From: an uncultured Lachnoclostridium sp.
GTDB taxonomy: Bacteria; Bacillota; Clostridia; Lachnospirales; Lachnospiraceae
NCBI GenBank assembly: GCA_964634715.1
Contig: CAZWLV010000001.1
Span: 1 to 63,506, forward strand
DNA: 63,506 nt
Direction of reading: 5' to 3'
Shown: positions 12,648 to 56,834 of the stretch, one piece after another
How positions within the stretch are numbered: the first letter of the stretch is position 1
How the letters are laid out: each line of letters begins with the position of its first letter
Position numbers and translations under genes: made by a program
Notes under the pieces: generated by a model
Told to the model about the DNA's origin: nothing
What the model saw: the letters and a program-made list of their open reading frames with translations, nothing else
Databases searched by the model: none

Positions 12648-12675
12648 GGAACAAAGAAACGAACTGGAGGATCTT

Positions 12676-14109: not shown

Positions 14110-14117
14110 AAACCGTG

Positions 14118-14188: not shown

Positions 14189-14216
14189 TCTCATTGATAG
14201 AAAGGATGATTTTCTT

Positions 14217-15695: not shown

Positions 15696-15712
15696 TCATC
15701 TTCTCTAATATT

Positions 15713-15743
15713 AAAAAAACAGGTTCTAAGACCTGTTTTTTTA
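15713..15743. terminator. bidirectional rho-independent terminator
   Basis: AAAAAAACAGGT-tctaag-ACCTGTTTTTTT: a stem flanked by an A-run and a T-run. It lies between convergent genes ending at 15695 (+) and 15789 (-). Confidence 0.7.
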
Positions 15744-15788
15744 ATATCCTTTGAATCTTTCCTTTACAAAGTTTCAAAAACACATTTG

Positions 15789-40160: not shown

Positions 40161-41753
40161 TTAAAAAATTTCCAGCAGATAAACCTGCCATGCTTCATCA
40201 CTCTGCAATGGCTCTTCCATAGAAAGAGTACTTTCCGGAAACAGTTCTTTGATGAAGGCTCCGGCTTCTTCCTGATCTACATCATAGGAAATGTACAGTA
40301 AAATATGGTCTTCATTTTCCAGACATTCCATATCTTCTCTCACTTCGGAAGCATCTGTCAGGCTTTTTACATTATAAAATCCCTGATAATTCTTTAATAC
40401 CTGAACTGCATCAAAATAATCATACATATCCGTTTCTTCTCCCAGATATAATGCATAACAATCCTGATACTGTTCTGCAATTTCTAATCTCTGCGTCACT
40501 GCCGTATCTTTTGCATACGTATATGGAATCGAAGAATGTGCCATATGAATGACCGAAAGTCCTCCAAATCCCACCATACATAAAATGACTGCTGTTTTTT
40601 CAGAGATCCATTGTCTGAAAAACATCATCATCCAGCCGATGACTGCCAGATAGACCAGCGGATAAATCGGCATCAGATAACGGTCAATCTGATACGGTGC
40701 GATCTTTGTAACGATCAGAAAGTATCCGGCACTCGCAAACAGCAGGACTCCTGTTTTCCTGATCCACTGTTTTTCCGGATATTTTTTCCGAAAGATCCCA
40801 AATACTGCCAAAATGATCAATGCTGCCAAAACAAGGATTCCAAGACCTGTAAAAAGCTGTGAATCCAAAATTTCCCACATGGTCTTTAATTTTCCCAGAT
40901 AATCCGCAGAATTGCTGAAATTTTCTCTCGCTTCTGCTCCCCTGCTGGTACCAAAGATATGTTTTAACATCGATGGATAAAGTGCAATGCTTGCTGCCGC
41001 ACTGATCACAAACACCAAAACAAACTGAATCGTTTTTTTATAATCTTTTTGTCTTAAAAAGCGGATTCCATACCACAGGGCAAAAAAGAATGCAATGATC
41101 ACAAAATAGTATTGTGTCAGTACACCGGCCGTCAGTGTCAGCCCTAAGAAAACATATCCCTTCAAAGGAATCTGATCCTGCTCCATATATTTCAGATAAA
41201 CCAGTGCATGGAGCAGCACCAGCAACGTCATAAGCATATACATCCGCACAAAAACGACTGTATTTTGACCTGCAAAGCTGATCCCAAAAAGAAATGCCGC
41301 TAAAAGTCCGCATTCCCTGCTTTGAAAAAGTTCTTTTCCAAGTGCATACAAAACGACCGTACACATCAGGAAAAAAAGAAGATTAAATGCAATTCCTGTT
41401 CCATAGGAAAATTGATCCGGAACCAGAGAGCTTGCCGTATGCAAAAAAAGATAAAATAACGGCGGATGTACGTCCTGATCCTGATTATGATAAGGAATCG
41501 CATACTCAAACCGATGTTCCGGCTGTGCTGACACATAATCCACATACCAGGTTTCATCCAGCCATCTGTTTTTTGGAACTTCTCCGATATAATCCGGATT
41601 ATTTGCAGAAACATAACTAAAAAGCTCATCCGGTGCCAGATAATTTTTTTGTCCTGTCCAGAACAAAGCCAGGCCAAGCTGTATCAGGCAGATGAAGATC
41701 AGCAGGAAAAGATCTCTTTTTCCCTTTGTCAGACTGCTCATTTTCTTACTCAT
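40161..41753 (-). CDS. GT-C fold membrane glycosyltransferase (GT39/ArnT/PMT-like)
   Basis: 530 aa with more than 10 predicted TM helices. An acidic motif in the first loop (APDELFSY) and HPPLFYLFLH. The soluble C-terminal domain is about 130 aa. Confidence 0.65.
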   Translation of the reverse strand: MSKKMSSLTKGKRDLFLLIFICLIQLGLALFWTGQKNYLAPDELFSYVSANNPDYIGEVPKNRWLDETWYVDYVSAQPEHRFEYAIPYHNQDQDVHPPLFYLFLHTASSLVPDQFSYGTGIAFNLLFFLMCTVVLYALGKELFQSRECGLLAAFLFGISFAGQNTVVFVRMYMLMTLLVLLHALVYLKYMEQDQIPLKGYVFLGLTLTAGVLTQYYFVIIAFFFALWYGIRFLRQKDYKKTIQFVLVFVISAAASIALYPSMLKHIFGTSRGAEARENFSNSADYLGKLKTMWEILDSQLFTGLGILVLAALIILAVFGIFRKKYPEKQWIRKTGVLLFASAGYFLIVTKIAPYQIDRYLMPIYPLVYLAVIGWMMMFFRQWISEKTAVILCMVGFGGLSVIHMAHSSIPYTYAKDTAVTQRLEIAEQYQDCYALYLGEETDMYDYFDAVQVLKNYQGFYNVKSLTDASEVREDMECLENEDHILLYISYDVDQEEAGAFIKELFPESTLSMEEPLQSDEAWQVYLLEIF

Positions 41754-42952
41754 TCTACATTTTCTCCAAAAGTATCCGGTCTTGCCGGATCAAAAGCTTC
41801 ATTTGCCCACATAACCGTTACGAGATTTTCTGTTTCTGATAAATTGATAATATTATGGGTATATCCCGGCAGCATATGAACCGCCTGGATCTTTTCTCCG
41901 GATACTTCAAACTCCATGATCTCATCAGAACCGATCTTCCGTTCCTGAATCAGCCCATGACCTGCTACGACCATGAAAAATTCCCATTTACTGTTATGCC
42001 AGTGCTGCCCTTTTGTGATGCCCGGCTTGCTGATATTGACAGAAACCTGACCATGGGAAGCCGTTTTTAAAAGTTCCGTAAAAGATCCTCTGTCATCACA
42101 ATTCATCTTCAGATCAAAGATCGTTTTTTCTTTCGGAAGATAAGACAGATACGTGGAATAAAGTTTTTTTGCAAAACTATCCTTTGGAATTTCCGGCATC
42201 ATCAGCGTTTCCGGCTGTGCTTTGAATTCCAAAAGAAGATCAACGATCTCTCCTAACGTCACTTTATGCGTAACCGGAACGTAACAATACGCTCCTTCTG
42301 TATGTTCCACAGGTTCCATTCCATCATAAACGCACCGATGCTCTTTTCCTTCCAGTGCATCTAACAGTTCTTCTACCAGATCATCGATATAAAGAAGCTC
42401 CAGCTCTGTCGTTCGGTCATTGACCGTAAATTCCAGATCATTGGCTACGGCATGACAAAACGTTGCTACTGCGGAATTATAATTCGGACGGCACCATTTA
42501 CCAAACAGATTTGGAAAACGATAGACTAACACCTTTGCTCCCGTTTCTTTTGAATACTGAAAGAACAGTTCTTCTCCTGCAAGTTTGGATCTTCCATACT
42601 CGGAATCTCCAAAACGTCCCATCAGTGTCGCCTGAATGGAACTGCTTAACATGACCGGACAGGTATTTTGATATTTTTTCAATGTCGTTAATAAAACTTC
42701 AGAAAAGCCAAAATTTCCTTCCATAAATTCAGAAAGTTCTTTCGGACGGTTCACACCTGCCAGATGAAATACAAAATCAGCTTCTTTACAATACTCTTCC
42801 AGCAGATCCGGATCGGTATCCAGATCGTATTCATAGATTTCTTCGATCTTAAGTTCCGGACGGGTACGGTTCTTATTTTCTTTTATATTTTTCAGATTGG
42901 CTGTCAGATTTTTTCCTACAAATCCTTTTGCTCCTGTTACTAAGATCTTCAT
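41750..42952 (-). CDS. fnlB: CapF/FnlB/WbjC-type bifunctional reductase (SDR + cupin) of the UDP-L-FucNAc pathway
   Basis: MKILVTGAKGFVGKNL is the SDR N-terminus. The C-terminal cupin is KGQHWHNSKWEFFMVVAGHG. The ATG at 42952 forms an ATGA overlap with the upstream stop. Confidence 0.8.
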   Translation of the reverse strand: MKILVTGAKGFVGKNLTANLKNIKENKNRTRPELKIEEIYEYDLDTDPDLLEEYCKEADFVFHLAGVNRPKELSEFMEGNFGFSEVLLTTLKKYQNTCPVMLSSSIQATLMGRFGDSEYGRSKLAGEELFFQYSKETGAKVLVYRFPNLFGKWCRPNYNSAVATFCHAVANDLEFTVNDRTTELELLYIDDLVEELLDALEGKEHRCVYDGMEPVEHTEGAYCYVPVTHKVTLGEIVDLLLEFKAQPETLMMPEIPKDSFAKKLYSTYLSYLPKEKTIFDLKMNCDDRGSFTELLKTASHGQVSVNISKPGITKGQHWHNSKWEFFMVVAGHGLIQERKIGSDEIMEFEVSGEKIQAVHMLPGYTHNIINLSETENLVTVMWANEAFDPARPDTFGENVE

Positions 42953-44109
42953 GATTTTCTCCATACCATTTTGTTGACAACGCCTGTGTAACTCTGGATG
43001 ATCTTTACAACTTTATCCGATACATTTTCTTCTGTATAATCCGGTACCGGAATGCCAAGATCACCATTTTTGTTCATTTCCACTGCCACATCAACTGCCT
43101 GAAGCAGACTGTCCCCTTCGATCCCTGCCAAAATAAAGCATGCCTTATCCAGTGCTTCCGGACGTTCTGTCGAAGTTCTGATGCAGACAGCCGGGAACGG
43201 ATGTCCCACGGAAGTAAAAAAGGAAGATTCCTCCGGTAAGGTTCCGGAATCCGAAACAACGGCAAACGCATTCATCTGAAGGCAGTTATAATCATGAAAT
43301 CCCAAAGGTTCATGACGGATCACTCTTGGATCCAGTTCAAATCCTGACTCTTCCAGTCTTTTTCTGCTTCTTGGATGACAGGAATACAGGATCGGCATAT
43401 CGTAAGTCTCTGCCATTTTATTGATCGCCGTAAAAAGAGACGTAAAATTCTTCTCGGTATCAATATTTTCTTCACGATGTGCAGATAAAAGGATATATTT
43501 TCCTTTTTCCAATCCCAGACGCTGATGAATATCCGATGCTTCGATCTTCGAAAGATTGTTATGCAGCACTTCTGCCATCGGAGATCCTGTCACATAGGTT
43601 CTCTCTTTTGGAAGTCCGCAGTCAGCAAGATAACGTCTTGCATGCTCAGAATATGCCATATTCACATCAGAAATGATATCTACGATACGGCGGTTTGTTT
43701 CTTCCGGAAGACACTCGTCTTTGCACCGGTTTCCGGCTTCCATATGAAAGATCGGGATATGCAGTCTTTTGGCACCGATCACTGATAAACAGCTGTTGGT
43801 ATCCCCTAAGACAAGGACTGCATCCGGCCGGATCTCTGCCATCAGCTGATAAGATTTTGCAATGATATTTCCCATGGTTTCCCCAAGATCACTGCCAACG
43901 GCATTCAAATACACTTCCGGATCTTCCAGTTCCAGATCTTTAAAAAATACACCGTTTAAATTATAATCATAATTCTGACCGGTATGGGCAAGGATCGTAT
44001 CAAAATATTTTCTGCATTTTTTGATCACTGCGGAAAGACGGATGATCTCCGGTCTGGTTCCCACGATGATCAGAAGTTTTAATTTTCCGTTATTTTTAAA
44101 TGCTGCCAT
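42949..44109 (-). CDS. fnlC: UDP-N-acetylglucosamine 2-epimerase (non-hydrolysing; CapG/FnlC/WbjD-type)
   Basis: 386 aa. LIIVGTRPEIIRL, LVLGDTNS, HMEAGNR, VSDSGT. Confidence 0.85.
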   Translation of the reverse strand: MAAFKNNGKLKLLIIVGTRPEIIRLSAVIKKCRKYFDTILAHTGQNYDYNLNGVFFKDLELEDPEVYLNAVGSDLGETMGNIIAKSYQLMAEIRPDAVLVLGDTNSCLSVIGAKRLHIPIFHMEAGNRCKDECLPEETNRRIVDIISDVNMAYSEHARRYLADCGLPKERTYVTGSPMAEVLHNNLSKIEASDIHQRLGLEKGKYILLSAHREENIDTEKNFTSLFTAINKMAETYDMPILYSCHPRSRKRLEESGFELDPRVIRHEPLGFHDYNCLQMNAFAVVSDSGTLPEESSFFTSVGHPFPAVCIRTSTERPEALDKACFILAGIEGDSLLQAVDVAVEMNKNGDLGIPVPDYTEENVSDKVVKIIQSYTGVVNKMVWRKS

Positions 44110-44111
44110 AG

Positions 44112-45158
44112 TTATTTCTCCATTTTTGCCAGCTCTTCCTGAATATAGGAAAGTGCCAGCAGTTTTTCTTTTACTTCTTCAACACCGAGAAGTTTTGTAT
44201 TGTTGCTGTTAAATTCTGTCAGTGTATTACGTTTGGCATCTCCTTCACTGAAATACTGATCGTAATTCAGGCTTCTCTGATCTGCCGGTACACGGTAAAA
44301 TTGTCCCATATCTACGGCTTTGGCACACTCTTCGTTCGTCAGAAGGGTTTCGTACATTTTTTCACCGTGACGGATCCCGATGATCTTGATCTCTTCTTTC
44401 TTTCCGCCAAACAGTTCACAGACTGCTTCTGCCTGAGTCTTGATCGTACACGCCGGTGCTTTCTGTACCAGAATATCTCCGCTGTTTCCATGTTCAAACG
44501 CAAACAGCACCAGATCTACTGCTTCTTCCAGTGACATGATAAATCTCGTCATCGTTGGATCCGTGATGGTGATCGGCTGTCCATTTCTGATCTGATCGAT
44601 CCAAAGCGGGATTACAGATCCTCTGGAACACATTACATTTCCATAACGGGTACAGCAGATCTTTGTTTTTTCCGGATCTACCGTTCTTGATTTGGCAACT
44701 GCCACACGTTCTTCCAAAGCTTTTGTGATCCCCATGGCATTGACCGGATAAGCTGCTTTATCTGTCGAAAGACAGATGACGGATTTTACGCCTTCTTCAA
44801 TAGCGGCTGTCAAAACATTATCCGTCCCGATCACATTGGTCTTGACGGCTTCCATCGGGAAAAATTCACAAGACGGTACCTGTTTTAATGCTGCTGCATG
44901 GAAAATGTAGTCTACGCCATGCATCGCTGCTTTTACAGAAGAAAGTTCTCTGACATCTCCGATATAAAATTTGATCTTATGTGCCGCTTCCGGCATTTTT
45001 GCCTGAAATTCATGGCGCATATCATCCTGTTTTTTCTCATCACGGGAAAATACACGGATCTCTCCGATATCTGTCTGCAAAAATCTGTTCAGTACGGCAT
45101 TTCCAAAAGATCCTGTTCCTCCTGTGATCAATAAGGTCTTTCCTTCAAAAACTGACAT
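44112..45158 (-). CDS. fnlA: UDP-GlcNAc 4,6-dehydratase/5-epimerase (CapE/FnlA/WbjB-type)
   Basis: KTLLITGGTGSFGNAVLNRFL, FSRDEKKQ, ICLSTDKAAYPVNAMGITKA, CCTRYGNVMCSRGSVIP. Confidence 0.9.
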   Translation of the reverse strand: MSVFEGKTLLITGGTGSFGNAVLNRFLQTDIGEIRVFSRDEKKQDDMRHEFQAKMPEAAHKIKFYIGDVRELSSVKAAMHGVDYIFHAAALKQVPSCEFFPMEAVKTNVIGTDNVLTAAIEEGVKSVICLSTDKAAYPVNAMGITKALEERVAVAKSRTVDPEKTKICCTRYGNVMCSRGSVIPLWIDQIRNGQPITITDPTMTRFIMSLEEAVDLVLFAFEHGNSGDILVQKAPACTIKTQAEAVCELFGGKKEEIKIIGIRHGEKMYETLLTNEECAKAVDMGQFYRVPADQRSLNYDQYFSEGDAKRNTLTEFNSNNTKLLGVEEVKEKLLALSYIQEELAKMEK

Positions 45159-45196: not shown

Positions 45197-46624
45197 TTAC
45201 TGTTTTTTTCTACAAAACCGATTTTGAAGCAGCATCCAGACTTCCATGATCACTTTTCTGTTCAGGATCACGATCGCAAGACAGAGCAATGAACTGATCA
45301 CTACCCAGTATTTCATTCCCACATAAGTGACAAAACACTGCAGCCCTATAAGAAGATAAGAAGTCAGATCTACTTTATAATTTACTTTGATCGGTAAGAT
45401 TTTTCTGGAATCTACCAGTCTCATTACCCATACTACTACATAACTGATCATCGTTGCAATGGCTGCTCCCAAAGCTCCCATGGAAGGAATGAGCAGTATA
45501 TTTAACACAATATTGCTCCCTGCTCCAACGATCGTCGTCACAAAAATCTTTTTCGTCTTTTTCGATGCAGCATAAATGATCCCTAAAAATCCGTTCAGTG
45601 CCTGAAACACAACTGCGATCAAAAGGATCATGGCATATTTCCACGCTTCATAAAATTCACCGGAAAACAGGATCTTTGCGATGATCTTGATGAACAAAAT
45701 GATCCCCGATGCTGCCATCACATACACCGATGCATATTTTTGATAAACATCGGAAAAAAATTCTTTTGATTCTTCACTTCCAAAATCATCAACTGCCGAG
45801 ATCTGCCATGCACTGGTCAGGATCGTTGACAGGATGGAAATGATCGATGGGATCTTATAGGCAATGGCATAGATCCCGATCGCTGATGCTCCAAAGAAAA
45901 ACTCCAAAATGTACCGGTCTGATGAATCACTGATCCACCAGCTGATGGAATTGGGGATCAGGGGGATACAGTATACCAGCATTTCCCGAAATACGTTCCG
46001 ATCCACTTTGGAAAACGGCACCAGATAATTCCACAGCCGTTCTTTAAAAAAGATATAGAAAAATGACGTGGCATATCCAAGGATATAAGCCAAAAGATAT
46101 CCCCGGATCCCCATCCGGAATACGAGCAGCAAAACGATATTCCAAAGGCAGGTTGCAAATGTCGTGAGGATTCCGCTCATGACAAATACATTGACATGTT
46201 CTAACCCTTTGGTAAACTGCTGTGCCGTATTGCTCAGTACCATGACCAGATAATATGCCAGAAAATAAAGCACGTATTCTTCAAACGGAACGAGCTTTTT
46301 CCATACCGGCATCGTCACTGCCAGAAGTGCAAATCCTGCACCTACGATCAGGGCACTGACGGTAAAGATCTGTTTTTTATCACTGTTTTTTTCTAATGTT
46401 AATCGTAAAATTCCTTCTGCTACTGTCAATGTCAAAAACGGAATACAGAGATTGATCGTCGTTGTGATCAGATCTGAAATCCCGTATTCACTGGTAGACA
46501 GACAGTACGTATACATTGGAAGAAGCACAAAGGTCAGGATCTTTGATGCAAAATTTCCGATGACCATCAGTGCTGTATTCATTCCTAATTTTTTATATCT
46601 GTTATGATTCATAATCACTTCCAT
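45197..46624 (-). CDS. wzx: Wzx-type oligosaccharide-repeat flippase (MOP superfamily)
   Basis: 475 aa with about 12-14 TM helices and a polysaccharide-biosynthesis-protein-type N-terminus (KKLGMNTALMVIGNFASKILTFVLLPMYT). Confidence 0.75.
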   Translation of the reverse strand: MEVIMNHNRYKKLGMNTALMVIGNFASKILTFVLLPMYTYCLSTSEYGISDLITTTINLCIPFLTLTVAEGILRLTLEKNSDKKQIFTVSALIVGAGFALLAVTMPVWKKLVPFEEYVLYFLAYYLVMVLSNTAQQFTKGLEHVNVFVMSGILTTFATCLWNIVLLLVFRMGIRGYLLAYILGYATSFFYIFFKERLWNYLVPFSKVDRNVFREMLVYCIPLIPNSISWWISDSSDRYILEFFFGASAIGIYAIAYKIPSIISILSTILTSAWQISAVDDFGSEESKEFFSDVYQKYASVYVMAASGIILFIKIIAKILFSGEFYEAWKYAMILLIAVVFQALNGFLGIIYAASKKTKKIFVTTIVGAGSNIVLNILLIPSMGALGAAIATMISYVVVWVMRLVDSRKILPIKVNYKVDLTSYLLIGLQCFVTYVGMKYWVVISSLLCLAIVILNRKVIMEVWMLLQNRFCRKKQ

Positions 46625-46632: not shown

Positions 46633-47466
46633 TTAAATATAGGAGCTTAAATATTCACCTGCATCACAGGCAATGATCTCTCCTGATATACATTTTGAGG
46701 CATCACTTAACAGGAAACAGGCAACTTCTGCTACCTCTTCCGGCAAAAAGACTCTGCCCGGTGCAACTCTGTCCAGATAAAGATTATCCTCCGGCGAGAT
46801 CTTGGTCATGCCTGATACGGTGATCCCCGGTGCGATTCCATTGACACGGACTCCATCCCGGTAAAATCTTCTGGATAAGCCCCGTACTAAGGAATTGATC
46901 CCTGCTTTTGTCAGCCCGTAAGGGACATCGTCACACTGGAACCCTCTCTCGGATGACATAAACAGCAGCACAGCTTCTTTTTTCGGTGTTTTTTTCTTTA
47001 AAAATGCCTGTGCCATAAAGTAAGAACTTTCCAGATTGGTGCGAAACTGCCGTTCATAATCTTCTCTATTTACCTGAAGGATATTTTCTTCATGAAGGGA
47101 AATGCCGGCATTAAAGACCAGTGCATCAAATTCTGCACCCATCATCTCTTCCGCATTCTGTAAAAATTCTTCGTTTTTTTCTATCTGACTTACATCAAAT
47201 TGGATAGAATGACAGTTGCTTCCAAGCTCTTTTTCCGTCTGTTCCAGACGTTCTTTATCTCTTCCGACGATCAGTACTTCTGCTCCCTCCAAAATGCATT
47301 TCTTTGCGATCGCAAGTCCGATACCGCTGTTTCCTCCTGTAACGAGAATCTTCTTTCCCGACAGGATCCCACCGTAATTGATCTGCGAAACATTCACCTG
47401 CACCTGCATTTGGGGGATTCCTTTAAAAATATAATATAATACTCTTTTCAGATATTCTTTCATCAT
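46633..47466 (-). CDS. classical short-chain dehydrogenase/reductase
   Basis: KILVTGGNSGIGLAIAKK (TGxxxGxG), NAGI, and the S...YGLTK catalytic pattern. Confidence 0.8.
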   Translation of the reverse strand: MMKEYLKRVLYYIFKGIPQMQVQVNVSQINYGGILSGKKILVTGGNSGIGLAIAKKCILEGAEVLIVGRDKERLEQTEKELGSNCHSIQFDVSQIEKNEEFLQNAEEMMGAEFDALVFNAGISLHEENILQVNREDYERQFRTNLESSYFMAQAFLKKKTPKKEAVLLFMSSERGFQCDDVPYGLTKAGINSLVRGLSRRFYRDGVRVNGIAPGITVSGMTKISPEDNLYLDRVAPGRVFLPEEVAEVACFLLSDASKCISGEIIACDAGEYLSSYI

Positions 47467-47467
47467 A

Positions 47468-49204
47468 CTATCCTTTTTTCAGCTTTGATTTGATCAGCTC
47501 GATGTTCTGTGTTCCGATCTTCTGTTTCAGATACTGTTTGATCGATGAGTTTTTTTCGATATTACGCATCAAAGACAGTGCTTCGCTTTCCAACGCAGAA
47601 TCCGTAAATACTTCAAATAAGATCGGTTTTTCTGTCTGTTCTTTTGTTACGAAACGCTCCATTGCTGATGCAAATTCTTCTTTATCCGATGCACTCAGAT
47701 ATTCAAATCCAAGATCTTCCGCATAATGCTTTACCAGCTCCGGTGACTGCTTTCCGTAGTGTCCTGCTGCTGCTACATAAAGATCTGCCTCTTCTTTCAG
47801 GATCGATGCCGGATGAGAATAATGCCTAAATTCCGTTCCTCTTCCGTTATTCACTAACAGGATGCGGAGATTTTTGCCCACATGGCGGTTTCCAAGGGCA
47901 TTCATGTCATAGAAAAAGGCAAGATCACCTACGACTGCAAAATAGCAGTCTGCCTCTTCTGCCAATGATGCTCCCAAAAGAGTGGAAAGACATCCGTCAA
48001 TCCCAAAACCTCCCACATTCGATGCCGAACGGATCGTGTCTGAAAATTCAAAGAAATTCCATGATCTTAAGCTGTTTAAGATTCCAAAATGGATCACAGA
48101 ATTTTCCGGCAGTTTCGGTGCAAGCTGTTTTGCCGCCCAGATATTTGAAAACGGAAGTTCCGGTATTTCTTTTCGAAGTTCTTTTAATTTTGCTGAAAAT
48201 CTTTCATAAGACTCATTTTTCACCGGTTCCGGCTGATAGTTTGCATATTCCCTGAAAAACTGTTTTTCCTGCATTTCAAATACATGGGTAAGCTTTCGGA
48301 AACGGTCTCTGATCTCCCCGTCAGGCGAAACCCTCCATACTTCCTTTGCCGGAAGCATATAATAATCTCCGGACACTTCTCCGATATCGATCAGAAGATC
48401 GATCGTATATTCTTCCGTCTTTAACTGCTCCTGCGAACCTAACAACGCTCCCAAAATGCCGTATTTTCCATGATATCCGCTGGTATGGTCACACCATACA
48501 AATGCACCGTAACGTTCACAGAACTCTTCCACTGCTTTCGTCTCATCTTCTGTCCATTTTTTATGGGAACCTGCAAACACTGCAATGGTCTTTTCCTTTG
48601 AAATCTTTGGAAATTCATCTCCCAAAACGATCCTTTGGATCACTCTCGTCTTTGGAAGCTCCTCTACCGTAAAATCATAGCTAAACGATGCGATCAGGTT
48701 GATATGTACCGGACCGCCTCCATCTTTACGCAGTGCAAGGATCGCTTGGTTCGCCAGAAGATTACATTTCCATTCATCATCTTCTCCGGCGATCTCTGAA
48801 AGTGTTACGGATAATTTTACTGCATCATTCGGGACATTCGTTCGATCCAGTATCTGTGGAAGATGCTGCCCCGGAAGGTCGGATCCTAACATAGAAGTCA
48901 CTGCCAGTACCGGCAGTTTCCGGTAATAAGCTTCCGTCAGTCCCGGAAAATAGTTTCTTGATGCAGTCGCACCGGTACAGGAAAGTACCACAGCTTCTCC
49001 TGATTCCTGTGCAAGCCCGCAGGCAATATAAGCTGCAGAACGTTCGTCTGCCGCCGAATAAATTTCAAACCACGGATCATGCTGCACACTGGCAGCAAAC
49101 ATCATATTGGTCGTTCCCGGAGAAATAACGATTTTTTTGATCCCATGCCCTTTTAAAAGTGAAATGAGGATCAATACATTTTTTCTGACTGTATATTTAT
49201 TCAT
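47468..49204 (-). CDS. thiamine-diphosphate-dependent enzyme (MenD / acetolactate-synthase-like fold)
   Basis: The N-terminal PYR domain is ISPGTTNMMFA...ADERSAAYIACGLAQESGEAVVLSCTGATASRNYFPGLTEAYY. The C-terminal ThDP motif is VVGDLAFFYDMNALG...LLVNNGRG. Start at ATG 49204 with a GGAGGG RBS. Confidence 0.75.
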   Translation of the reverse strand: MNKYTVRKNVLILISLLKGHGIKKIVISPGTTNMMFAASVQHDPWFEIYSAADERSAAYIACGLAQESGEAVVLSCTGATASRNYFPGLTEAYYRKLPVLAVTSMLGSDLPGQHLPQILDRTNVPNDAVKLSVTLSEIAGEDDEWKCNLLANQAILALRKDGGGPVHINLIASFSYDFTVEELPKTRVIQRIVLGDEFPKISKEKTIAVFAGSHKKWTEDETKAVEEFCERYGAFVWCDHTSGYHGKYGILGALLGSQEQLKTEEYTIDLLIDIGEVSGDYYMLPAKEVWRVSPDGEIRDRFRKLTHVFEMQEKQFFREYANYQPEPVKNESYERFSAKLKELRKEIPELPFSNIWAAKQLAPKLPENSVIHFGILNSLRSWNFFEFSDTIRSASNVGGFGIDGCLSTLLGASLAEEADCYFAVVGDLAFFYDMNALGNRHVGKNLRILLVNNGRGTEFRHYSHPASILKEEADLYVAAAGHYGKQSPELVKHYAEDLGFEYLSASDKEEFASAMERFVTKEQTEKPILFEVFTDSALESEALSLMRNIEKNSSIKQYLKQKIGTQNIELIKSKLKKG

Positions 49205-49264
49205 AGTTCCCTCCGTTCTTTTTTCATAAATTTTCTGATTACTGTACAAACAGTACTTATGGAC

Positions 49265-50299
49265 TTAGTGTATCGATCCTTCAGAACCGTTTTCAGCTGT
49301 AAGCATCTTTTTCAATAATTTTTGAGAGTTTTCCACATAGTCCTCTAATTTCTGGCTGCTCTGTCCACAATCCACATGATAAACTTTTTCCGAAACCCTG
49401 TCTGCCTGAAAACCGCTTGCCTCGATCAGTTCTGCCTGTCTGGAACTTAACATGGAATGATGGACACAATCTACTTTTTTTCTGAAAATATACGAAAATG
49501 CCAGCCCGTGAAACGAATTGGTTACGATACAGGAGGCATTCCTGATCAATGCCAGAAAATCTTCCACACCCGCATCTGACATAAATTCATCACAGTTCTG
49601 AATCCGGTCGTTCATCGGGTGAAGTGATATGATCTTTTTTCCGGTCTCTTTTTGTAATTTTTCTGTTAATCGGTCAATTTCTTCTGAATATTCCAGAGAA
49701 TATACAAGAATATGTCCTTTTCGATTGCTGTATTCTGAAGTTTCTGCCAGTTTTTCGTAAATTTCCGGTTTTTTGTAAAAAAGAAAGGTCGGATCACAAA
49801 CAGTTTCGGCCGATATTCCCATCTTTTCTAAAATTTGTCGGGCAGAATCTTCCCTGACCGTTAAAAAACGATAATTTTCAAGCACCTTTTTATGAGAACG
49901 AAAATACGCTTCTTCTTTTTGTGAAAGTTTTCCCGTACCAAAACTTGCCGCATACGAACACAATGCTCCATAGTTTCCCTTTGGTTCGATCCAGAAATCA
50001 TCTTCTCCGGTAATCCCTAAATTCCATACCTGATCGGAACCGATGAGCACCCGGTCATAGGTTTCTTTTACAGAACTTCTCTTAAAATATTGTTTTCGAA
50101 ACTGCTCTATTTTTTTCTCAAATCCCCTTGGCAGAAATTTTTTCCGAATCTTTGTTTTTTTACTGATCATCTGCTCCGGAACATAATCGATCACGCTGAC
50201 CTGTGCCCCATAAGCCTTACAGGCTTCCTGCAGTGCATAGCACTGAAGCACTGCTCCGTAATTATCTGCAAATTGAAATGTCAGAATCCCTGTTTTCAA
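49265..50299 (-). CDS. polysaccharide pyruvyl transferase family protein
   Basis: The N-terminus KTGILTFQFADNYGAVLQCYALQ is typical of the CsaB/WcaK-like pyruvyl transferase family. Assignment is by eye. Confidence 0.65.
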   Translation of the reverse strand: MKTGILTFQFADNYGAVLQCYALQEACKAYGAQVSVIDYVPEQMISKKTKIRKKFLPRGFEKKIEQFRKQYFKRSSVKETYDRVLIGSDQVWNLGITGEDDFWIEPKGNYGALCSYAASFGTGKLSQKEEAYFRSHKKVLENYRFLTVREDSARQILEKMGISAETVCDPTFLFYKKPEIYEKLAETSEYSNRKGHILVYSLEYSEEIDRLTEKLQKETGKKIISLHPMNDRIQNCDEFMSDAGVEDFLALIRNASCIVTNSFHGLAFSYIFRKKVDCVHHSMLSSRQAELIEASGFQADRVSEKVYHVDCGQSSQKLEDYVENSQKLLKKMLTAENGSEGSIH

Positions 50300-51507
50300 A
50301 TCTGTTCTCCTTTTACCATGCTCAATATCTGATCATTCTCTTCTAAGATCACCGGATACGTTTCTTTTTCTTCATACATTTCCACAAGAGCTTCTCTGAC
50401 GTTGTCCTGATTTTGTAAGAATATCCACAACTCTTCTTTATTTTGGAAGACTTTTCCACATTTTAACTCGTTTGTCATTGTATAAATGTTCCCACTTTGT
50501 GGATTTGTGAATATATAACAGCCGCTGACATAGGCTTCAAAAAATGTATAGGCATAAGTTTCCGGCCGCAAAGACCATAAAAATGCAATGTCGATCTTTT
50601 CCCTGCGAATGGCATCGATCATCGCATTTGGACCGTCTTTCGCTACCGAAACCGGAATCCTTTTCACTTTCTCACTGCATTCGCCGTCTCCAAGCACATA
50701 GAGATCATACTGATCTTCATAGCGTTCACACAGACGTTTCCAGATTTCCCAGCCTTTTTCTACTCTTCCATATCCAATAAAAGCAATCTTTAGCTTTTCT
50801 GCCGGATCTTTTTTCTGATATTCTTTCCTAAGAGTGCCAAATTTCGTATTCGGCACAACCAAAAGCTGATTTTTTGCCTGAAAATGTTTCTGCCAGATTT
50901 CCCTGACAACCTCTGACGGAAATACATAAATGATCTTTGGGTAGCGTTCTACGAATTTTCTCTGCCAGATCTCATTAACCTTTCCTTCCAGATAAAACCG
51001 GCAGGTTTTACATTTTTGAAAGGATAACGGCTCCGTACCGCAAAATTCTTTGTTATTGCGCATAAGAACGTGATTATAACACACCATGGCATAATCATGC
51101 ACGAAATAGTAAATCGGACACCGGATCTTGTCCAAAACAGCAAATAACTGTTCATTTTTCTTAAAAGTTACTAATTCGTGTATGATCACACTGCAAAGAT
51201 TTTCCAGTGAGACCAGTTTCATCAGATCTTCCTGCGTGATCGTTCCTTTTTCTTCTCCGTTCACGATCAGACCATAGCCGGATAACGTCCTGCTGTGAAG
51301 AAGTCCAAAAATCTGCAGATCCTGTCTCAGCGGATAGACTGCTATGAAATTATATCCATTTTCTAAAAAAAGCTTTTGCTGTCCCTGAATGACTTTTTCC
51401 ACGCCTGCATCGGTATGGACATAATCAGAATGTGTCAGTACCAGAATACTTTTATCAAATTTCACGCTCTTTGATCCTCCGCCGTAATACAATATAAGAT
51501 TTTGCAA
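50296..51507 (-). CDS. putative GT-B fold glycosyltransferase
   Basis: 403 aa. The C-terminal half is GT1/GT4-like (LKIAFIGYGRVEKGW...EAYVSGCYIFTNPQSGN). A Cys-rich insert is present (MVCYNH...EFCG...CKTC). An alternative GTG start at 51465 has a GGAGG RBS. Confidence 0.5.
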   Translation of the reverse strand: MQNLILYYGGGSKSVKFDKSILVLTHSDYVHTDAGVEKVIQGQQKLFLENGYNFIAVYPLRQDLQIFGLLHSRTLSGYGLIVNGEEKGTITQEDLMKLVSLENLCSVIIHELVTFKKNEQLFAVLDKIRCPIYYFVHDYAMVCYNHVLMRNNKEFCGTEPLSFQKCKTCRFYLEGKVNEIWQRKFVERYPKIIYVFPSEVVREIWQKHFQAKNQLLVVPNTKFGTLRKEYQKKDPAEKLKIAFIGYGRVEKGWEIWKRLCERYEDQYDLYVLGDGECSEKVKRIPVSVAKDGPNAMIDAIRREKIDIAFLWSLRPETYAYTFFEAYVSGCYIFTNPQSGNIYTMTNELKCGKVFQNKEELWIFLQNQDNVREALVEMYEEKETYPVILEENDQILSMVKGEQI

Positions 51508-52195
51508 AGATCCATCGGGAATACAGTTTTTCTTTCAGGCTTCTCTGCACGACACTGGCATTCTTTCCATGGATCCTTCTCTTTAACACGATCTTTTCAA
51601 GATGAGCATTGCTTTTCATCATATTTGCCGCCATAGCGATCCAAAGATCATGGGATTCGATCTCTTCCGGAAACGGCAGGATCACCGGTTTCAGCGTTTT
51701 CTGAAATGCCATGGCACAGCCATAATAGTAAGCTTTTCCCGTAAAGATGTTTAAAATATTTTTTTTATATTCTTCAGACTCTTTTTCATACAAAACTCCC
51801 AGATCATATCCGCAGGGATCTCCCTGTTTGTCTATCGCTTCTGAATTTCCGGAAACGAGCATTGCACCGCTTTTCATTTTTTCTAACATCTGCCCTGCTC
51901 TTCCTTCCGTCCAAAGATCGTCCTGATCTGCCATGAAAATATAATCATTTTTTGCAAGTTTGATGGCTTTTTCAAACGAACGGTTAACACCCATATTTTC
52001 CTTATTTTTTACATAAAGAATCCTTGGATCAGAAAAACTGCGGATGATCAGCTCTGTCTGATCCTTCGAACCGTCATCTACGATGATCAGCTCATCTTCT
52101 GCTTCCAGCTGCGGCAGGATCGTGCCGATCTGCTCTTTAATATAATCTTCTCCGTTATAGCATGCCATACAGACACTGATCTTTTCCTTACGCAT
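51455..52195 (-). CDS. family 2 glycosyltransferase
   Basis: ISVCMACYNGEDYI, VDDGSKDQT, ADQDDLW. Start at ATG 52195 (track ORF to 52240). Confidence 0.8.
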   Translation of the reverse strand: MRKEKISVCMACYNGEDYIKEQIGTILPQLEAEDELIIVDDGSKDQTELIIRSFSDPRILYVKNKENMGVNRSFEKAIKLAKNDYIFMADQDDLWTEGRAGQMLEKMKSGAMLVSGNSEAIDKQGDPCGYDLGVLYEKESEEYKKNILNIFTGKAYYYGCAMAFQKTLKPVILPFPEEIESHDLWIAMAANMMKSNAHLEKIVLKRRIHGKNASVVQRSLKEKLYSRWIFAKSYIVLRRRIKEREI

Positions 52196-53075
52196 TTTTC
52201 CTATCCTCCGGATAACGTCCTCTGACACCTGTAATGCCATGTACGATTCCCATGATATAATATTTCAAATAACTGCCTTTTTCTTTTACATGAAACAAAA
52301 GCAAAAAGTTATGCAGCAGTGCCGGTAACATCTGTCTGACCGTAAATACCAGTCCTGCTTTTTTCCGAAACAGCAAAAAACTGTTCCTTACTTTATAATA
52401 CGTCCGCACCGGACTGTGAACCGTAATGGTCATGCCCTCTGTGTGGATCTCTTCGCTGCCGATCTTATGCTGCAGCACTGCCTCCGGAATCACATAGATC
52501 GGAATCCCTGCTCTCCTGCACCGAAGACACCACTCGATATCTACAAAATCAATAAAAAAATCTTCATCAAATGTGCCTGCTTTTCGAAATACGTCTGCTG
52601 TCGTCATCGTTCCGGAAGAAATGACCAGATCTGCCGCTGCTGCCTGTTTGGCATCTTTTACATAAAGATCCTTCGGATATCCCAGCTTTCCAAGCCGCTG
52701 TACCGGATATTCTTCTCCCGTATCCAGATCCACTGCCACCGGAACCACCACACACTCTCCAAGCAGTTTTAAATTTTTTTCTAATATCTTTAAAAGACTA
52801 CCATCGATCCGGCTGTCCTGATCAAAAAATGCAATGATCTCTGCTCCCTGTTCACACGCATACCTGATACCGGCATTTTGTGCAGCAGCGATTCCTGCAT
52901 TTCCATGAAGGCTTAAGATCTTTGTATGTTCTGACACCTGATCTGCAGTGACCGCAGATTTTTCTGAATTATCGGCAATAACAGGCGTAAATCCTGCTTC
53001 TTCGATACATTCCGTCAGTTTTTTTAATGCTTCTTTTTCCGGTTCATACGTCACGATAACGACACATTTTGTCAT
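52188..53075 (-). CDS. family 2 glycosyltransferase (rhamnosyltransferase-like)
   Basis: VVIVTYEPE, ADNSEKS, GNAGIAAAQNAGI, FDQDSRI. Confidence 0.7.
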   Translation of the reverse strand: MTKCVVIVTYEPEKEALKKLTECIEEAGFTPVIADNSEKSAVTADQVSEHTKILSLHGNAGIAAAQNAGIRYACEQGAEIIAFFDQDSRIDGSLLKILEKNLKLLGECVVVPVAVDLDTGEEYPVQRLGKLGYPKDLYVKDAKQAAAADLVISSGTMTTADVFRKAGTFDEDFFIDFVDIEWCLRCRRAGIPIYVIPEAVLQHKIGSEEIHTEGMTITVHSPVRTYYKVRNSFLLFRKKAGLVFTVRQMLPALLHNFLLLFHVKEKGSYLKYYIMGIVHGITGVRGRYPEDRKNA

Positions 53076-53090: not shown

Positions 53091-54323
53091 TTACTGCTGA
53101 TGCAATTCTCTGTTTTTAAAAAAGCAATTCCAATACCAAAGCACTGCTGTTAATCCAAAAGAGTTAAACAGCACCGGATTGGTCTGGGCAAAAAACAGAT
53201 ACATTAAAAAGATCACGAACTCTTCTTTGATCTTCCAGATGTTCCATTCCTTGATCTTTTTCCGGCTTTTTTGTAATCTCGGACAAAGTAACGCACTCCA
53301 GATCAGAATGCTGAATGGAATCCCAAAATAACGGCAGTGATCCATAAATGTGATCTCTGTATGTGCGATCATCCGTTCTTTTCCCGTTGTATAATAAAAA
53401 CTTGCCAAACCATTGCCAAACCATACATTTTCCATGTTCAGCTGGTTAAAATACGAGGTAATATGTCCGGCTTTGATGCTGTTTGATTTTTCCGATAACG
53501 AAAAAAAGGTGGAAAAATTCCATAAATACAAAAATACAAGCATCCCTGCTGCACCAAGAAAGATGGCTGTCAGCAGCCGTGTTTTTTTATCAAGCCTGAT
53601 CCAGATCAGAATACATAAGGACAATGGGATCAGAAGGATCAGTGTCCTTGATCCTGTCGTCACCGTCATCAGTACCGACAGTCCGACAAAAAACAGGTTG
53701 GAAAAATTCCTGTTTCTTAAAAAATCCAGAAACAAAATATCTGTCAGGATCAGAAGAAACGGCGTTGTACCAAGATAGATCTGCATTCCGCTTCCGCCGA
53801 AAAATGCACGTTTTGTTAAGATTCCGGAACAAAACTCATACAACGTCTCTCCTATGAAACCGGTCACTCTGTTATCCAGAAGATGTGCTGCACTGCTGAT
53901 CCATGCCGGAATGGAAAACTCCATGATATTGATGGCATAAATGACAAACACGGCAAAAAACAGGATATAGACCTTTGCTGCAAATTTTAAGATCCTGTTC
54001 ATATCGATATCAAATTCCTGAATCGGATAGATCAGCAAAAGAATCCCCGTTGCAAGCAAAAACTGCTCCGCAAGTTTCATATCCGCTCCGTTAAGGCTGC
54101 CTCTGATATACCCAATCCCAAAGATCAAAACGATCAGTACCGGTGCTTTGGTCTTTTTTAGTACTTCCCATTTGTTTTCTTCTTTAAAGATCAGAAGATA
54201 TCCTCCGTAGATCAGAAACAGTACGATAAAGATCATTTTATTTACAACAGTCAGCGGGATCAGCAAAGAAGTCAGCATATAGATTGTCAATAAAATGGTA
54301 TAAATAGTACCTATCTGCATCAT
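53091..54323 (-). CDS. wzy: O-antigen polymerase/ligase-like membrane protein (Wzy candidate)
   Basis: 410 aa with about 10-11 TM helices. A TTGSRTLILLIP segment and a large loop with FGNGLASFYY...HTEITFMDH. Confidence 0.6.
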   Translation of the reverse strand: MMQIGTIYTILLTIYMLTSLLIPLTVVNKMIFIVLFLIYGGYLLIFKEENKWEVLKKTKAPVLIVLIFGIGYIRGSLNGADMKLAEQFLLATGILLLIYPIQEFDIDMNRILKFAAKVYILFFAVFVIYAINIMEFSIPAWISSAAHLLDNRVTGFIGETLYEFCSGILTKRAFFGGSGMQIYLGTTPFLLILTDILFLDFLRNRNFSNLFFVGLSVLMTVTTGSRTLILLIPLSLCILIWIRLDKKTRLLTAIFLGAAGMLVFLYLWNFSTFFSLSEKSNSIKAGHITSYFNQLNMENVWFGNGLASFYYTTGKERMIAHTEITFMDHCRYFGIPFSILIWSALLCPRLQKSRKKIKEWNIWKIKEEFVIFLMYLFFAQTNPVLFNSFGLTAVLWYWNCFFKNRELHQQ

Positions 54324-55477
54324 CTGAATTTCTTTTTCTCCACTCCAAGTTTCCTAAGAACCACTGTTCCAAGACTGATCAGACCAAAGGAATTTTTATA
54401 ATCTTCATACGTTTTGTTTTCTCCTTCGATCATTGCATCAAATTCTTCCACACTGATCTCCAGTTTTTCCGCAATGTAGGCTTTATCTTCCATCATCTGT
54501 TCCACAGGATAAGGATCTTTCGCAAGCTCTTCCAGTGCTTTTTCTCTTGTCAGCGTTCCTGCAAGCACTTCATTGGAAAAATAAACACGACGTTTATCAT
54601 AGCCAAATTTATGCGGCAGATAATAGCCTTCATAAAACCTTGTAAATACATTCTCATAATGCTTCTGGTCATATGGAATCCAGCCAAAACGTTCCTGTAA
54701 GAACTTTTTGACTTTTTCTTTGTCATATTCAATATAATTTAACGGTGCAACTCTCTTCATGCCTTTAAAATATGCATAATAAAGTCTGCTCTTTAACAAT
54801 CCGCATTTCGGAAATGTCTTCAACGGCACCTGACCGAATTTTTTATGAATGTCCTTGATCAGCACGATATCGTTCTGATAAACCCATTCTACCGGCGGAC
54901 GGATGCATTCTGTCGCATTATTGGCTCCGGTAAGCACATATTTGATCTTATTTTTTACAGCATAGTTATAAAGACCGGCAAAGATCGCATGATCCTGCGG
55001 AAGATCCTGATACGGAACCTGTGATTTAAAAAACGCAAGCTGCAGATCTTTCATTTCTTCCCAGTCGATGACTTCCGTATACAGATCAAGCCCTAACGCA
55101 TCTACCACTCTTTTGGTATTTTCATCTGCGAGCTTTAAATTCCATCCTGTATCTACACAATAGATCAGCGGACGTAAGTGCATCACCTCTTTGGCAATAT
55201 AGCAAAGATAAGAACTGTCCACACCACCGCTCATCCCGATGATACAGTCATATTTTTTCCCTTTGCCTTCTTTTCTGATCTTCTTTGCAATTTCCTGCAA
55301 TTCACGTTCGCCTTCTTCTCCCTGTTTCCAGCTCGGAAGGATATTTTCGTAATAGTCATTACAAAAATCACAGACACCTTTTTCGTCAAAAACGATCTTG
55401 GAATCCGTGGTATCCATCACACAGCAGGTACAGATCTGGTACGGTCGTTTTTCTTTCTTTTTTTTCATAATCTTCAC
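54320..55477 (-). CDS. N-acetyl sugar amidotransferase (WbuX/WbpG/LfnA-type PP-loop enzyme)
   Basis: N-terminal zinc-ribbon-like CTCCVMDTTDSKIVFDEKGVCDFCNDY and the PP-loop GMSGGVDSSY. Confidence 0.8.
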   Translation of the reverse strand: MKIMKKKKEKRPYQICTCCVMDTTDSKIVFDEKGVCDFCNDYYENILPSWKQGEEGERELQEIAKKIRKEGKGKKYDCIIGMSGGVDSSYLCYIAKEVMHLRPLIYCVDTGWNLKLADENTKRVVDALGLDLYTEVIDWEEMKDLQLAFFKSQVPYQDLPQDHAIFAGLYNYAVKNKIKYVLTGANNATECIRPPVEWVYQNDIVLIKDIHKKFGQVPLKTFPKCGLLKSRLYYAYFKGMKRVAPLNYIEYDKEKVKKFLQERFGWIPYDQKHYENVFTRFYEGYYLPHKFGYDKRRVYFSNEVLAGTLTREKALEELAKDPYPVEQMMEDKAYIAEKLEISVEEFDAMIEGENKTYEDYKNSFGLISLGTVVLRKLGVEKKKFR

Positions 55478-55574: not shown

Positions 55575-56834
55575 TTAAGCATCCTGTGCCTGAAAATAAT
55601 GATCCATCTGATCTAAAAGCTTCTTCTTTTCAAAATGCTCTTCAAAATAACTCCGGGCATTTTTTCTCATTTCCTGCAATTCTTCAGAATCCATCTGCAT
55701 CATTTGCATAATATTTTCAGCCAGTGCATACGGATCTCCTCCCGGACTGCACAAACCACACTGAGCCTCTTCGATCACTCGTTTTGACTCTCCTGCCGCC
55801 GCAGCTAAAACCGGCATGCCGCATGCCATGTAAGACTGTAATTTTGCCGGAATGGTCATTTCAAAAAGTTTCGTCTCCATAAAAGATAAAAAAGCGGCAT
55901 CGGAAGCTGCTAATAATCTCGGGATCTCTTCTGCTGGCTGACGTTTGATCATACAGAACAGTTCTTCTGTTTGCTGCTCTCTGATCTCTTTTTTCAGTTC
56001 TTCCAGATATCTTCCTTCTCCAACAATACAAAAAAGTACCTTCAGCCCCTTTTCTTTCAGGATCTTTGCTGTTTTTGGCAGAATATCCAAACCTTGTGCA
56101 AATCCTACGTTTCCGGTAAACATCACTTTAAATGCATCACTTTTTGGAATTTCCGGCACTTCTGTTTTTTGCATCGGAACATAAAATTCTTCTGCATACT
56201 GCGGCCAGTAATGCACCTTTTCTTTTGAAACTTTTACTTTTCTTTCGCAGACCGCTTTTACAAAACTTGGTGATGTCACAAAAATCTCCGTACAGTTTTT
56301 ATAAATGTAATCTACCATTTTCTGGATCGGTTCTATGATCAGCGGATGGGTGATTCCGGTGACCACTTCTACATTTTCCGGCCAAAGATCCTGTGCATAC
56401 AGATACAGCGGAACTTTATGCTTCTTTGCATACCAAACTCCGATCACACATTGTGTCATCGGAGAAGTCTCAAACATAAATACAGCATCGGCTTTGATCT
56501 TTGTAAAGATCTTCCAGAAAAATCCACTGAACGGAAAAGAAAGATAGTTAAAGATCATGCCAACCGCACCTTTTCCCCTTGGGATCACAGGAATCCTGAT
56601 GATCCTGATCCCATTCCAGTCCTCTTTTCTTTTTTTGCAAAAACCATATCCTTCGTAAAATTTTCCCTGTGGATAATTCGGAATGCCGGTCATCACCGTT
56701 ACCTGATAGCCTCGTCTGACCCATTCGCTGCACATATCATTGATACGGAACTGCTCCGGATAAAACACCTGACTGATCACAAGGATATGCTTTTTTTTCT
56801 TTTTTTCCTGAACCATCATCTTGCTTTCTTTCAT
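55575..56834 (-). CDS. family 4 glycosyltransferase (WbuB/WcaI-like, L-FucNAc-transferase-type)
   Basis: HILVISQVFYPEQFRINDMCSEWVRRGYQVTVMTGIPNYPQGKFYEGYG is the characteristic N-terminus of the WbuB-like group. A C-terminal E-x7-E-like region is present. Confidence 0.8.
   Translation of the reverse strand: MKESKMMVQEKKKKKHILVISQVFYPEQFRINDMCSEWVRRGYQVTVMTGIPNYPQGKFYEGYGFCKKRKEDWNGIRIIRIPVIPRGKGAVGMIFNYLSFPFSGFFWKIFTKIKADAVFMFETSPMTQCVIGVWYAKKHKVPLYLYAQDLWPENVEVVTGITHPLIIEPIQKMVDYIYKNCTEIFVTSPSFVKAVCERKVKVSKEKVHYWPQYAEEFYVPMQKTEVPEIPKSDAFKVMFTGNVGFAQGLDILPKTAKILKEKGLKVLFCIVGEGRYLEELKKEIREQQTEELFCMIKRQPAEEIPRLLAASDAAFLSFMETKLFEMTIPAKLQSYMACGMPVLAAAAGESKRVIEEAQCGLCSPGGDPYALAENIMQMMQMDSEELQEMRKNARSYFEEHFEKKKLLDQMDHYFQAQDA

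Follow-up and report, generated by a model that had tools for sequence, protein, structure and literature searches.

In this study, we analysed a 63,506-nucleotide stretch of DNA (the window hereafter) from an uncultured Lachnoclostridium species (contig CAZWLV010000001.1), in which three adjacent genes of a polysaccharide locus encode a pyruvyl-transferase-family protein, a thiamine diphosphate (ThDP) enzyme descended from MenD, and a classical short-chain dehydrogenase/reductase (SDR). Judged by its sequence, the ThDP enzyme is not MenD, and the same set of genes recurs in many other bacteria. On balance, we consider it probable that the trio forms a cassette for glycan tailoring, in which one sugar of the repeat unit receives a hydroxy acid that is joined by an ether bond and extended in its carbon chain. 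The identities of the genes, the non-MenD status of the ThDP enzyme, the substitutions in its active site and the conservation of the cassette are direct results of the analysis.

The three enzymes

An earlier examination of the window from its letters alone (the sequence-only reading) had described a 578-amino-acid (aa) MenD-like protein with a GD-x24-NN motif, and this protein is indeed present. Its open reading frame spans 47468-49249 when counted from a TTG codon, and an internal ATG yields the 578-aa form, which is 100% identical to catalogued protein P0004. The translation carries the motif as G426 D427 ... N452 N453, and the glutamate that activates the cofactor is E54. Comparison with Pfam gave 56.6 bits for TPP_enzyme_N and 19.8 bits for TPP_enzyme_C, the latter being slightly below the cut-off of the model, and the top NCBIfam model was menD (TIGR00173) with 170.6 bits, relative to a curated cut-off of 244.2.

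The transferase matches PF04230 (PS_pyruv_trans) with 107.1 bits against a cut-off of 25.3, and the match covers profile positions 1-273 of 280. We rejected its assignment as an equivalog of CsaB (29.8 versus 213.1 bits), and no sequence match to it was found among solved structures. The SDR scores 132.8 bits with adh_short and 143.8 bits with adh_short_C2, and the motifs TGGNSGIG, NAG and Ser...YxxxK can be read in its translation; among solved structures, it comes closest to FabG and to alcohol dehydrogenases for small ketones. The coordinates and Pfam matches bear out the earlier description of a classical SDR 1 nucleotide (nt) downstream of the ThDP gene, with a pyruvyl-transferase-family gene preceding it, and the Pfam and NCBIfam matches of the neighbouring genes agree with the placement of all three between glycosyltransferases and a flippase. 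None of the three proteins contains a hydrophobic segment, which fits cytoplasmic use of phosphoenolpyruvate (PEP), ThDP and NAD(P)H.

Distinction from MenD

We rejected the assignment of the ThDP enzyme as MenD on three of the four features by which membership was judged, namely its score, its substrate residues and its pathway partners, and only the cofactor machinery is that of MenD. For the residue comparison, the protein was first aligned with B. subtilis MenD (PDB 2X7J), and a second alignment set it against 81 members of the family and eight true MenDs. Three of the four substrate arginines of MenD are missing, with Arg32 replaced by T32, Arg106 by L106 and Arg428 by V397, and Ile489 is replaced by E458. 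The fourth arginine, Arg409 (R380), is kept along with Phe490 (F459) and Gln117, and these three residues are invariant in the family. The position of Arg32 is occupied by T in 77 of the 81 family members and that of Arg106 by Q (in most relatives) or L, while all 81 have V or T in place of Arg428 and E in place of Ile489. The catalytic positions E54, G426-D427 and N452-N453 are likewise invariant among the 81. Arg32, Arg106, Arg409, Arg428, Ile489 and Phe490 are all retained in each of the eight true MenDs. According to work on MenD (PMC2914249), isochorismate is recognised through Arg32 and Arg106, the main role of Arg428 is to bind 2-oxoglutarate, and Ile489 lies packed against the succinyl chain. 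Because both Arg32 and Arg106 are replaced, the acceptor is expected to be something other than isochorismate. The ThDP enzyme appears to be a catalytically intact, retuned derivative of MenD.

The phylogenetic placement that the sequence-only reading had suggested as a check is in agreement. In a maximum-likelihood tree with acetolactate synthases as the outgroup, the ThDP enzyme falls within a glycan clade (Shimodaira-Hasegawa-like approximate likelihood-ratio test (SH-aLRT) support of 99) that is sister to, and separate from, the MenD clade (support of 98); phyla are mixed within the glycan clade by habitat, gut or marine. In eight of ten other genomes that carry a homologue, a true MenD is encoded in addition to the glycan paralogue, and the two are cleanly separated because their menD scores do not overlap (351-458 bits for the true MenDs and 145-190 bits for the paralogues). 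The sequence-only reading had named tight clustering with true MenD and the presence of men genes nearby as evidence that would count against its proposal, and neither was observed. Its remark that men genes and PEP mutase are missing from the window also stands: a search of the whole assembly (80% complete, 366 contigs) detected no MenD above the cut-off, no MenB and no PEP mutase, with the incompleteness leaving their absence unproven. Assignment as a phosphonopyruvate or sulfopyruvate decarboxylase was rejected as well, given the lack of a PEP mutase in the assembly and the fact that these families fall outside the 25 best NCBIfam matches. Many members of the glycan family are labelled MenD in databases, and menaquinone synthesis is thereby wrongly implied where the pathway is missing.

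Two further observations concern related proteins. The source genome encodes a second ThDP enzyme (G000:C49:2956-3990, L088) in a 624-aa frame that scores 62 bits with the menD model and is probably an acetolactate-synthase-type protein. A genome of Bacteroides intestinalis (G001) encodes two glycan-type paralogues (L093 and L097, with 166.8 and 162.4 bits) and no MenD above the cut-off in the same search, and B. thetaiotaomicron in the control set has one.

Conservation of the cassette across bacteria

More than 8,000 database proteins from Bacteroidota, Pseudomonadota, Bacillota and other groups match the ThDP enzyme at 55-60% identity. Relatives are encoded in the genomes of at least 577 species, and the window protein is 51-59% identical to members from more than ten phyla, among them Bacillota, Bacteroidota, Pseudomonadota, Verrucomicrobiota, Spirochaetota, Chloroflexota, Synergistota, Patescibacteria, SAR324 and Riflebacteria. 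No match was obtained when a Photobacterium member was compared at the DNA level with 5,426 complete genomes of E. coli. In the source family, Lachnospiraceae, the gene occurs in five of 300 sampled species, and it was not found in the sole other species of the genus. This patchy distribution within the family is the pattern of a horizontally traded glycan module. The expectation of the sequence-only reading that such chemistry would be unusual for a gut Firmicute therefore holds within the organism's own family, but it fails more broadly, since the gene is common over gut Bacillota, Bacteroidota and other phyla.

We examined the gene neighbourhoods of 83 loci from other organisms, and the recurrence of the gene trio, another check put forward in the sequence-only reading, is evident from them. 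The ThDP gene has a PS_pyruv_trans gene as a neighbour in at least 73 of the 83 loci (67 within 4.5 kb on the first pass, and six more recovered by Pfam scans of apparent exceptions), and it is accompanied by a reductase in 75 (73 on the first pass, and two aldo/keto reductases added by inspection). The reductase role is filled by a classical SDR in 35 loci, an extended SDR in 42 and an aldo/keto reductase in two. Wzx is a fourth, looser member of the cassette, and in 63 loci its gene is no more than 4.5 kb away from that of the ThDP enzyme. The order Wzx, SDR, ThDP enzyme, pyruvyl transferase is found in Pseudoalteromonas and Phocaeicola, often with a GT2 glycosyltransferase next. In Runella, the classical SDR is replaced by an extended one and the order is otherwise unchanged. 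Firmicutes tend to have the order transferase, ThDP enzyme, reductase, as is the case here. Since the same neighbours are found in 83 loci of other organisms, the gene arrangement in the window is not due to chance. The window trio itself carries every feature that characterises the cassette, which is to say the T32 / R380 / V(T)397 / E458 / F459 signature, an adjacent PF04230 transferase and reductase, and a Wzx locus.

The reductase appears to be functionally tied to the ThDP enzyme. In one Selenomonadales metagenome-assembled genome (MAG; L085, 6905-10024), a single 1,040-aa frame comprises a ThDP enzyme, an aldo/keto reductase and a 4Fe-4S dicluster domain. The occurrence of three unrelated reductase families in the same role, together with this fusion, suggests that carbonyl reduction acts on the product of the ThDP enzyme. 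A related arrangement is found in a cultured rumen strain, Ruminococcus albus 7, where a GT2 glycosyltransferase, a pyruvyl transferase, a flippase, a ThDP enzyme and an extended SDR are encoded on the 421-kb megaplasmid pRUMAL01 (L110, 350679-356209) and adjoin a LicD / cytidylyltransferase / class-V aminotransferase module. The enzymes of this strain bear the locus tags RUMAL_RS18370-18385, and other bacteria in culture that have the gene include Selenomonas ruminantium ATCC 12561, Schaedlerella arabinosiphila DSM 106076, Otoolea muris DSM 111138, Bacteroides intestinalis and Shewanella hanedai.

It could be argued that the genes are merely neighbours in glycan loci, with the transferase forming an ordinary pyruvate ketal and the ThDP enzyme and SDR supplying some small metabolite or substituent with no connection to it, for example an acyl group derived from an acyloin. 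All characterised PF04230 enzymes indeed make ketals, for example DxpH (PMC12964715), and five loci (L050, L060, L063, L069 and L076) have no recognisable transferase. However, the adjacency of the genes is kept over more than ten phyla in spite of shuffled gene order, neither an acyl-activating enzyme nor an acyltransferase is among the constant partners, and exactly this combination of enzyme families is associated with a chain-extended ether in two natural products that are independent of each other. We therefore regard this explanation as quite improbable.

The neighbourhoods also bear on the explanation that the sequence-only reading had placed first, in which the enzymes would act in the manner of YerE and YerF to make a C-branched or hydroxyalkyl nucleotide sugar. 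YerE is an acetolactate-synthase-like enzyme that carries out a 1,2-addition to a CDP-4-keto sugar. By analogy, the ThDP enzyme would extend a nucleotide 4-keto sugar, such as the product of FnlA/CapE, by two carbons at its carbonyl, and the SDR would act like YerF. The order of the ThDP enzyme and the reductase mimics that of YerE and YerF, and FnlA, FnlC and FnlB are encoded directly downstream in the window. Nevertheless, models of the acetolactate synthase or YerE type give at most 36.3 bits, compared with 170.6 for menD, and the tree places the enzyme as sister to MenD. Moreover, an FnlA/CapE homologue is found within 7 kb in only five of the 83 loci, as opposed to the pyruvyl transferase that is adjacent in at least 73, and the FnlABC set is complete by itself for the synthesis of UDP-L-FucNAc. 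Given this count, the FnlABC neighbours of the trio are coincidental company, and the suggestion that the CapE 4-keto intermediate is the acceptor finds no backing. YerE-like branching is in our view highly unlikely and the least probable of the alternatives considered, all of which fall well below the cassette that we propose.

Proposed chemistry

From the direct results above we infer the chemistry of the cassette. In a first step, the transferase would take PEP and stop at an enolpyruvyl ether on a single hydroxyl, with no closure to a ketal. In a second, the ThDP enzyme would decarboxylate a 2-oxo acid, most likely pyruvate, to an acyl-anion equivalent, and would add this acyl unit to the terminal CH2 of the enol ether in a Stetter-type 1,4-addition. 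The type of reaction would be MenD's own Stetter-like conjugate addition, applied to a 2-alkoxyacrylate. The expected product is 2-O-linked 4-oxopentanoic acid, which is the substituent of D-lenose. In a third step, the SDR would use NAD(P)H to reduce the 4-ketone, giving the 2-ether of 2,4-dihydroxypentanoic acid. Because the SDR encoded here is intact, the side chain is expected to be the reduced one. This tailoring would take place on the cytoplasmic side, before Wzx flips the repeat unit. The carbon count would be satisfied as well, with PEP providing three carbons and an oxygen at C2, and with the acyl unit joined to C3 to yield a 2-O-substituted 4-oxo acid. The alternative offered in the sequence-only reading, a keto-acid-derived decoration, is the part of that reading that gains support, and the data fit a pentanoic acid of the lenose or 2,4-dihydroxypentanoic type, joined through an ether and bearing a 4-oxo or 4-hydroxy group.

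If this mechanism operates, then the fused ThDP enzyme and aldo/keto reductase of L085 would represent a natural fusion of the second and third steps. Under the same mechanism, loci without a reductase would make an unreduced 4-oxo side chain of the lenose type, and five full-length loci (L010, L022, L045, L058 and L082) have no recognisable reductase near the ThDP gene. At L010, the reductase slot is filled by a 286-aa protein with no assigned family.

The choice of donor would determine the length of the side chain, with pyruvate giving a C5 acid of the lenose type and 2-oxoglutarate a C7 acid of the type seen in the megapolipeptins. The loss of Arg428 and the glutamate at the position of Ile489 make 2-oxoglutarate an unlikely donor and favour pyruvate. 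It is conceivable that the ancestral donor was kept, in which case the same pathway would yield an ether-linked 4-oxo or 4-hydroxy heptanedioic acid (C7, with two carboxylates). Descent from MenD and the retention of Arg409, Phe490 and Gln117 are consistent with this possibility, and MgpK and MgpL are proposed to make exactly such a C7 group (PMC11411415). However, the V or T that replaces Arg428 and the invariant glutamate, which would face the distal carboxylate, are common to all 81 family members, and the glycan substituents known so far are C5. A 2-oxoglutarate donor thus seems unlikely to us.

Differences in sequence conservation among the members of the cassette are suggestive of how the work may be divided in the proposed pathway. 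Median pairwise identities are 55% for the ThDP enzyme, 50% for the extended SDR, 40% for Wzx, 36% for the classical SDR and 28% for the transferase. The contrast between 55% and 28% is what would be expected if the transferase reads varied sugars, and thereby selects the sugar to be modified, whereas the ThDP enzyme sees the constant enolpyruvyl end alone.

Alternatively, the order of the steps might be reversed, such that the ThDP enzyme and reductase act on free PEP to make a 2-phospho-4-oxo or 4-hydroxy pentanoate, and the transferase then moves this unit with loss of the phosphate. A phosphorylated precursor of this type has been suggested by the authors of the megapolipeptin work (PMC11411415). 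The high conservation of the ThDP enzyme and the extended SDR relative to the transferase would also fit soluble, universal substrates. However, in the known chemistry of PEP-utilising transferases, addition at C2 depends on the C=C of PEP, and a saturated secondary phosphate beside a carboxylate is a poor electrophile. We know of no metabolite of the 2-phospho-4-oxo or 4-hydroxy pentanoate type. We accordingly assign the reversed order only a small likelihood.

Several points weigh against the cassette and chemistry that we favour. The published gene assignments for lenose and for the megapolipeptins are annotations and not experiments, and the MenD of Plesiomonas shigelloides O37, to which lenose synthesis has been attributed, is provisionally placed in the glycan clade by gene order, length and a reported 60% identity to a Vibrio 'MenD'. 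The characterised members of PF04230 make ketals, and arrest at the enol ether is without a demonstrated example in the family. The preference for pyruvate over 2-oxoglutarate depends on just two substituted residues. Four loci, among them L009, L017 and L033 from rabbit-gut MAGs, carry both a classical and an extended SDR, and the two SDR types may not be strictly equivalent. Finally, the source of the window is an uncultured MAG whose polysaccharide is deduced from genes alone.

If the mechanism is correct, then the cassette supplies the missing biosynthetic genes for lenose and for the ethers of 2,4-dihydroxypentanoic acid, substituents that carbohydrate chemists described years ago. To our knowledge, very few enzymes are known to catalyse Stetter reactions, and a large natural family would join them, which would be of interest for biocatalysis. 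The surface glycans of gut and rumen bacteria would carry side chains that are negatively charged and antigenically distinctive. More tentatively, we suggest that the family as a whole (at least 577 species) is a large set of natural 'Stetterases' whose members add acyl units, by intermolecular 1,4-addition, to enolpyruvyl ethers that are bound to glycans. In combination with interchangeable reductases, such enzymes would explain lenose and all of the 2,4-dihydroxypentanoic acid ethers, and gut Firmicutes and Bacteroidota would display the resulting side chains.

Genes surrounding the trio

Every gene of the region is carried on the minus strand, and the trio is flanked by glycosyltransferases and Wzx (Table 1). 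The end of the transferase gene and the start of the ThDP gene are separated by 60 nt, and Wzx has 13 hydrophobic segments. No Pfam match, NCBIfam match or hydrophobic segment was found for the 403-aa protein encoded next to the transferase. Language-model features alone place it near clusters of GT4-type glycosyltransferases, which is a lead and not a test. Homologues of this protein occur in only two of the 83 related loci, and a homologue of the adjacent GT2 glycosyltransferase (51455-52240) is present in 21. The two proteins are candidates for the makers of the acceptor sugar linkage.

Table 1. Genes of the polysaccharide locus, listed in the order of transcription.
Feature	Positions	Strand	Remarks
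Initiating sugar-phosphate transferase (Bac_transf)	56859..58205	-	First in operon transcription order
GT4	55575..56834	-	
PP-loop amidotransferase-like gene	54320..55477	-	
Wzy-like membrane protein	53091..54323	-	
Rhamnosyltransferase-type GT2	52188..53075	-	
Second GT2 glycosyltransferase	51455..52240	-	GT2, 95.4 bits
403-aa soluble protein	50296..51507	-	Directly upstream of transferase gene; 4-nt overlap with transferase start
Polysaccharide pyruvyl-transferase-family gene	49265..50299	-	344 aa; TTG start; 4-nt overlap with upstream gene
MenD-derived ThDP enzyme	47468..49204	-	578 aa, counted from ATG at 49204
Classical SDR	46633..47466	-	277 aa; start 1 nt past ThDP stop
Wzx-type flippase	45197..46624	-	475 aa; 8 nt past SDR; Polysacc_synt 60.6 bits
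FnlA, FnlC, FnlB	41750..45158	-	After Wzx in transcription order
530-aa protein	40161..41753	-	Without Pfam match; CotH genes next

Comparison with known systems

The closest relative of the ThDP enzyme by sequence is MenD (EC 2.2.1.9; TIGR00173; PDB 2X7J, 3FLM, 7TIN and 9E9B), which belongs to the same three-domain ThDP fold family. Both share the activating glutamate, the GD-x24-NN motif, Gln117, Arg409 and Phe490, and the 1,4-addition proposed here, to a double bond conjugated with a carboxylate, would be of the same type. The enzyme differs from MenD in its location in glycan loci, next to a pyruvyl transferase and without the men pathway, in its score below the cut-off, and in its separate clade. 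The resemblance to YerE and YerF lies in the succession of a ThDP carboligase and a reductase within a polysaccharide locus, but the ThDP enzyme described here is derived from MenD and has no link to keto-sugar genes.

Searches of the literature found no paper with an assay of the glycan-type ThDP family and none that links a thiamine pyrophosphate enzyme and a pyruvyl transferase to a capsule, and a search for menD together with wcaK found only the Plesiomonas paper discussed below. As far as we could search, there is no published gene-to-structure assignment or biochemistry for the three-gene form.

A similar pairing of enzymes is proposed in secondary metabolism. In the megapolipeptins, MgpK (a pyruvyl transferase) and MgpL (MenD-like) are proposed to produce an O-linked 4-oxoheptanedioate on a lone hydroxyl (PMC11411415; PMC13291983), and in vitro, with PEP, a related transferase that has no ThDP partner converts a diol to a plain pyruvyl ketal (PMC12964715). 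When MgpK/MgpL and DxpH/ChtnH are set beside the trio, the likeness is that MgpK/MgpL also combines a member of the pyruvyl-transferase family with a MenD-like enzyme, to give what is proposed to be a chain-extended 4-oxo acid. The differences are that a secondary metabolite provides the acceptor, in the form of a lipid hydroxyl, that the C7 product implies 2-oxoglutarate, and that no reductase is involved. A scan of 401 Burkholderiales genomes with the menD model for MgpL found only ordinary MenDs and one glycan paralogue, Paraburkholderia megapolitana evidently not being in the sample.

The predicted product of the full cassette has a counterpart in the O-antigens of Providencia alcalifaciens. 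Ethers of this kind are known non-sugar substituents, and a 2-ether of 2,4-dihydroxypentanoic acid is attached, for instance, to O-4 of mannose in P. alcalifaciens O31 (PMC10609480, citing Shashkov et al. 2008). This substituent (an ether at C2, a hydroxyl at C4 and a C5 acid) is that predicted for the complete cassette. The likeness is known from the chemistry alone and concerns a Gram-negative enterobacterium, whereas the organism here is a Gram-positive gut anaerobe. No gene assignment for the P. alcalifaciens 2,4-dihydroxypentanoic ethers was found in the searchable literature.

By gene order and annotation, no described system comes closer to the trio than the menD/wcaK pair of P. shigelloides O37. 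Its cluster, which is among the GenBank records MN115821-MN115829, comprises wzx (10947-12482), menD (13422-15131, 569 aa), wcaK (15143-16261, 372 aa) and a glycosyltransferase gene, and the authors, likewise by annotation, assigned lenose synthesis to MenD and WcaK together (PMC9723277). The order wzx, gap, menD, wcaK, glycosyltransferase matches the Gram-negative form of the cassette, and the second step of our scheme predicts precisely the O37 product, in which glucose carries a 2-O-linked 4-oxopentanoic acid. The O37 system differs in that no reductase appears in the published table and the ketone is retained, whereas the locus described here has an intact SDR and a Gram-positive host. Between wzx and menD, 940 bp at 12483-13421 are without annotation (PMC9723277 supplement), and this gap occupies the slot where other cassettes of Gram-negative bacteria have their reductase gene. 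If the reductase were missing or broken at this position, the ketone of lenose would be explained.

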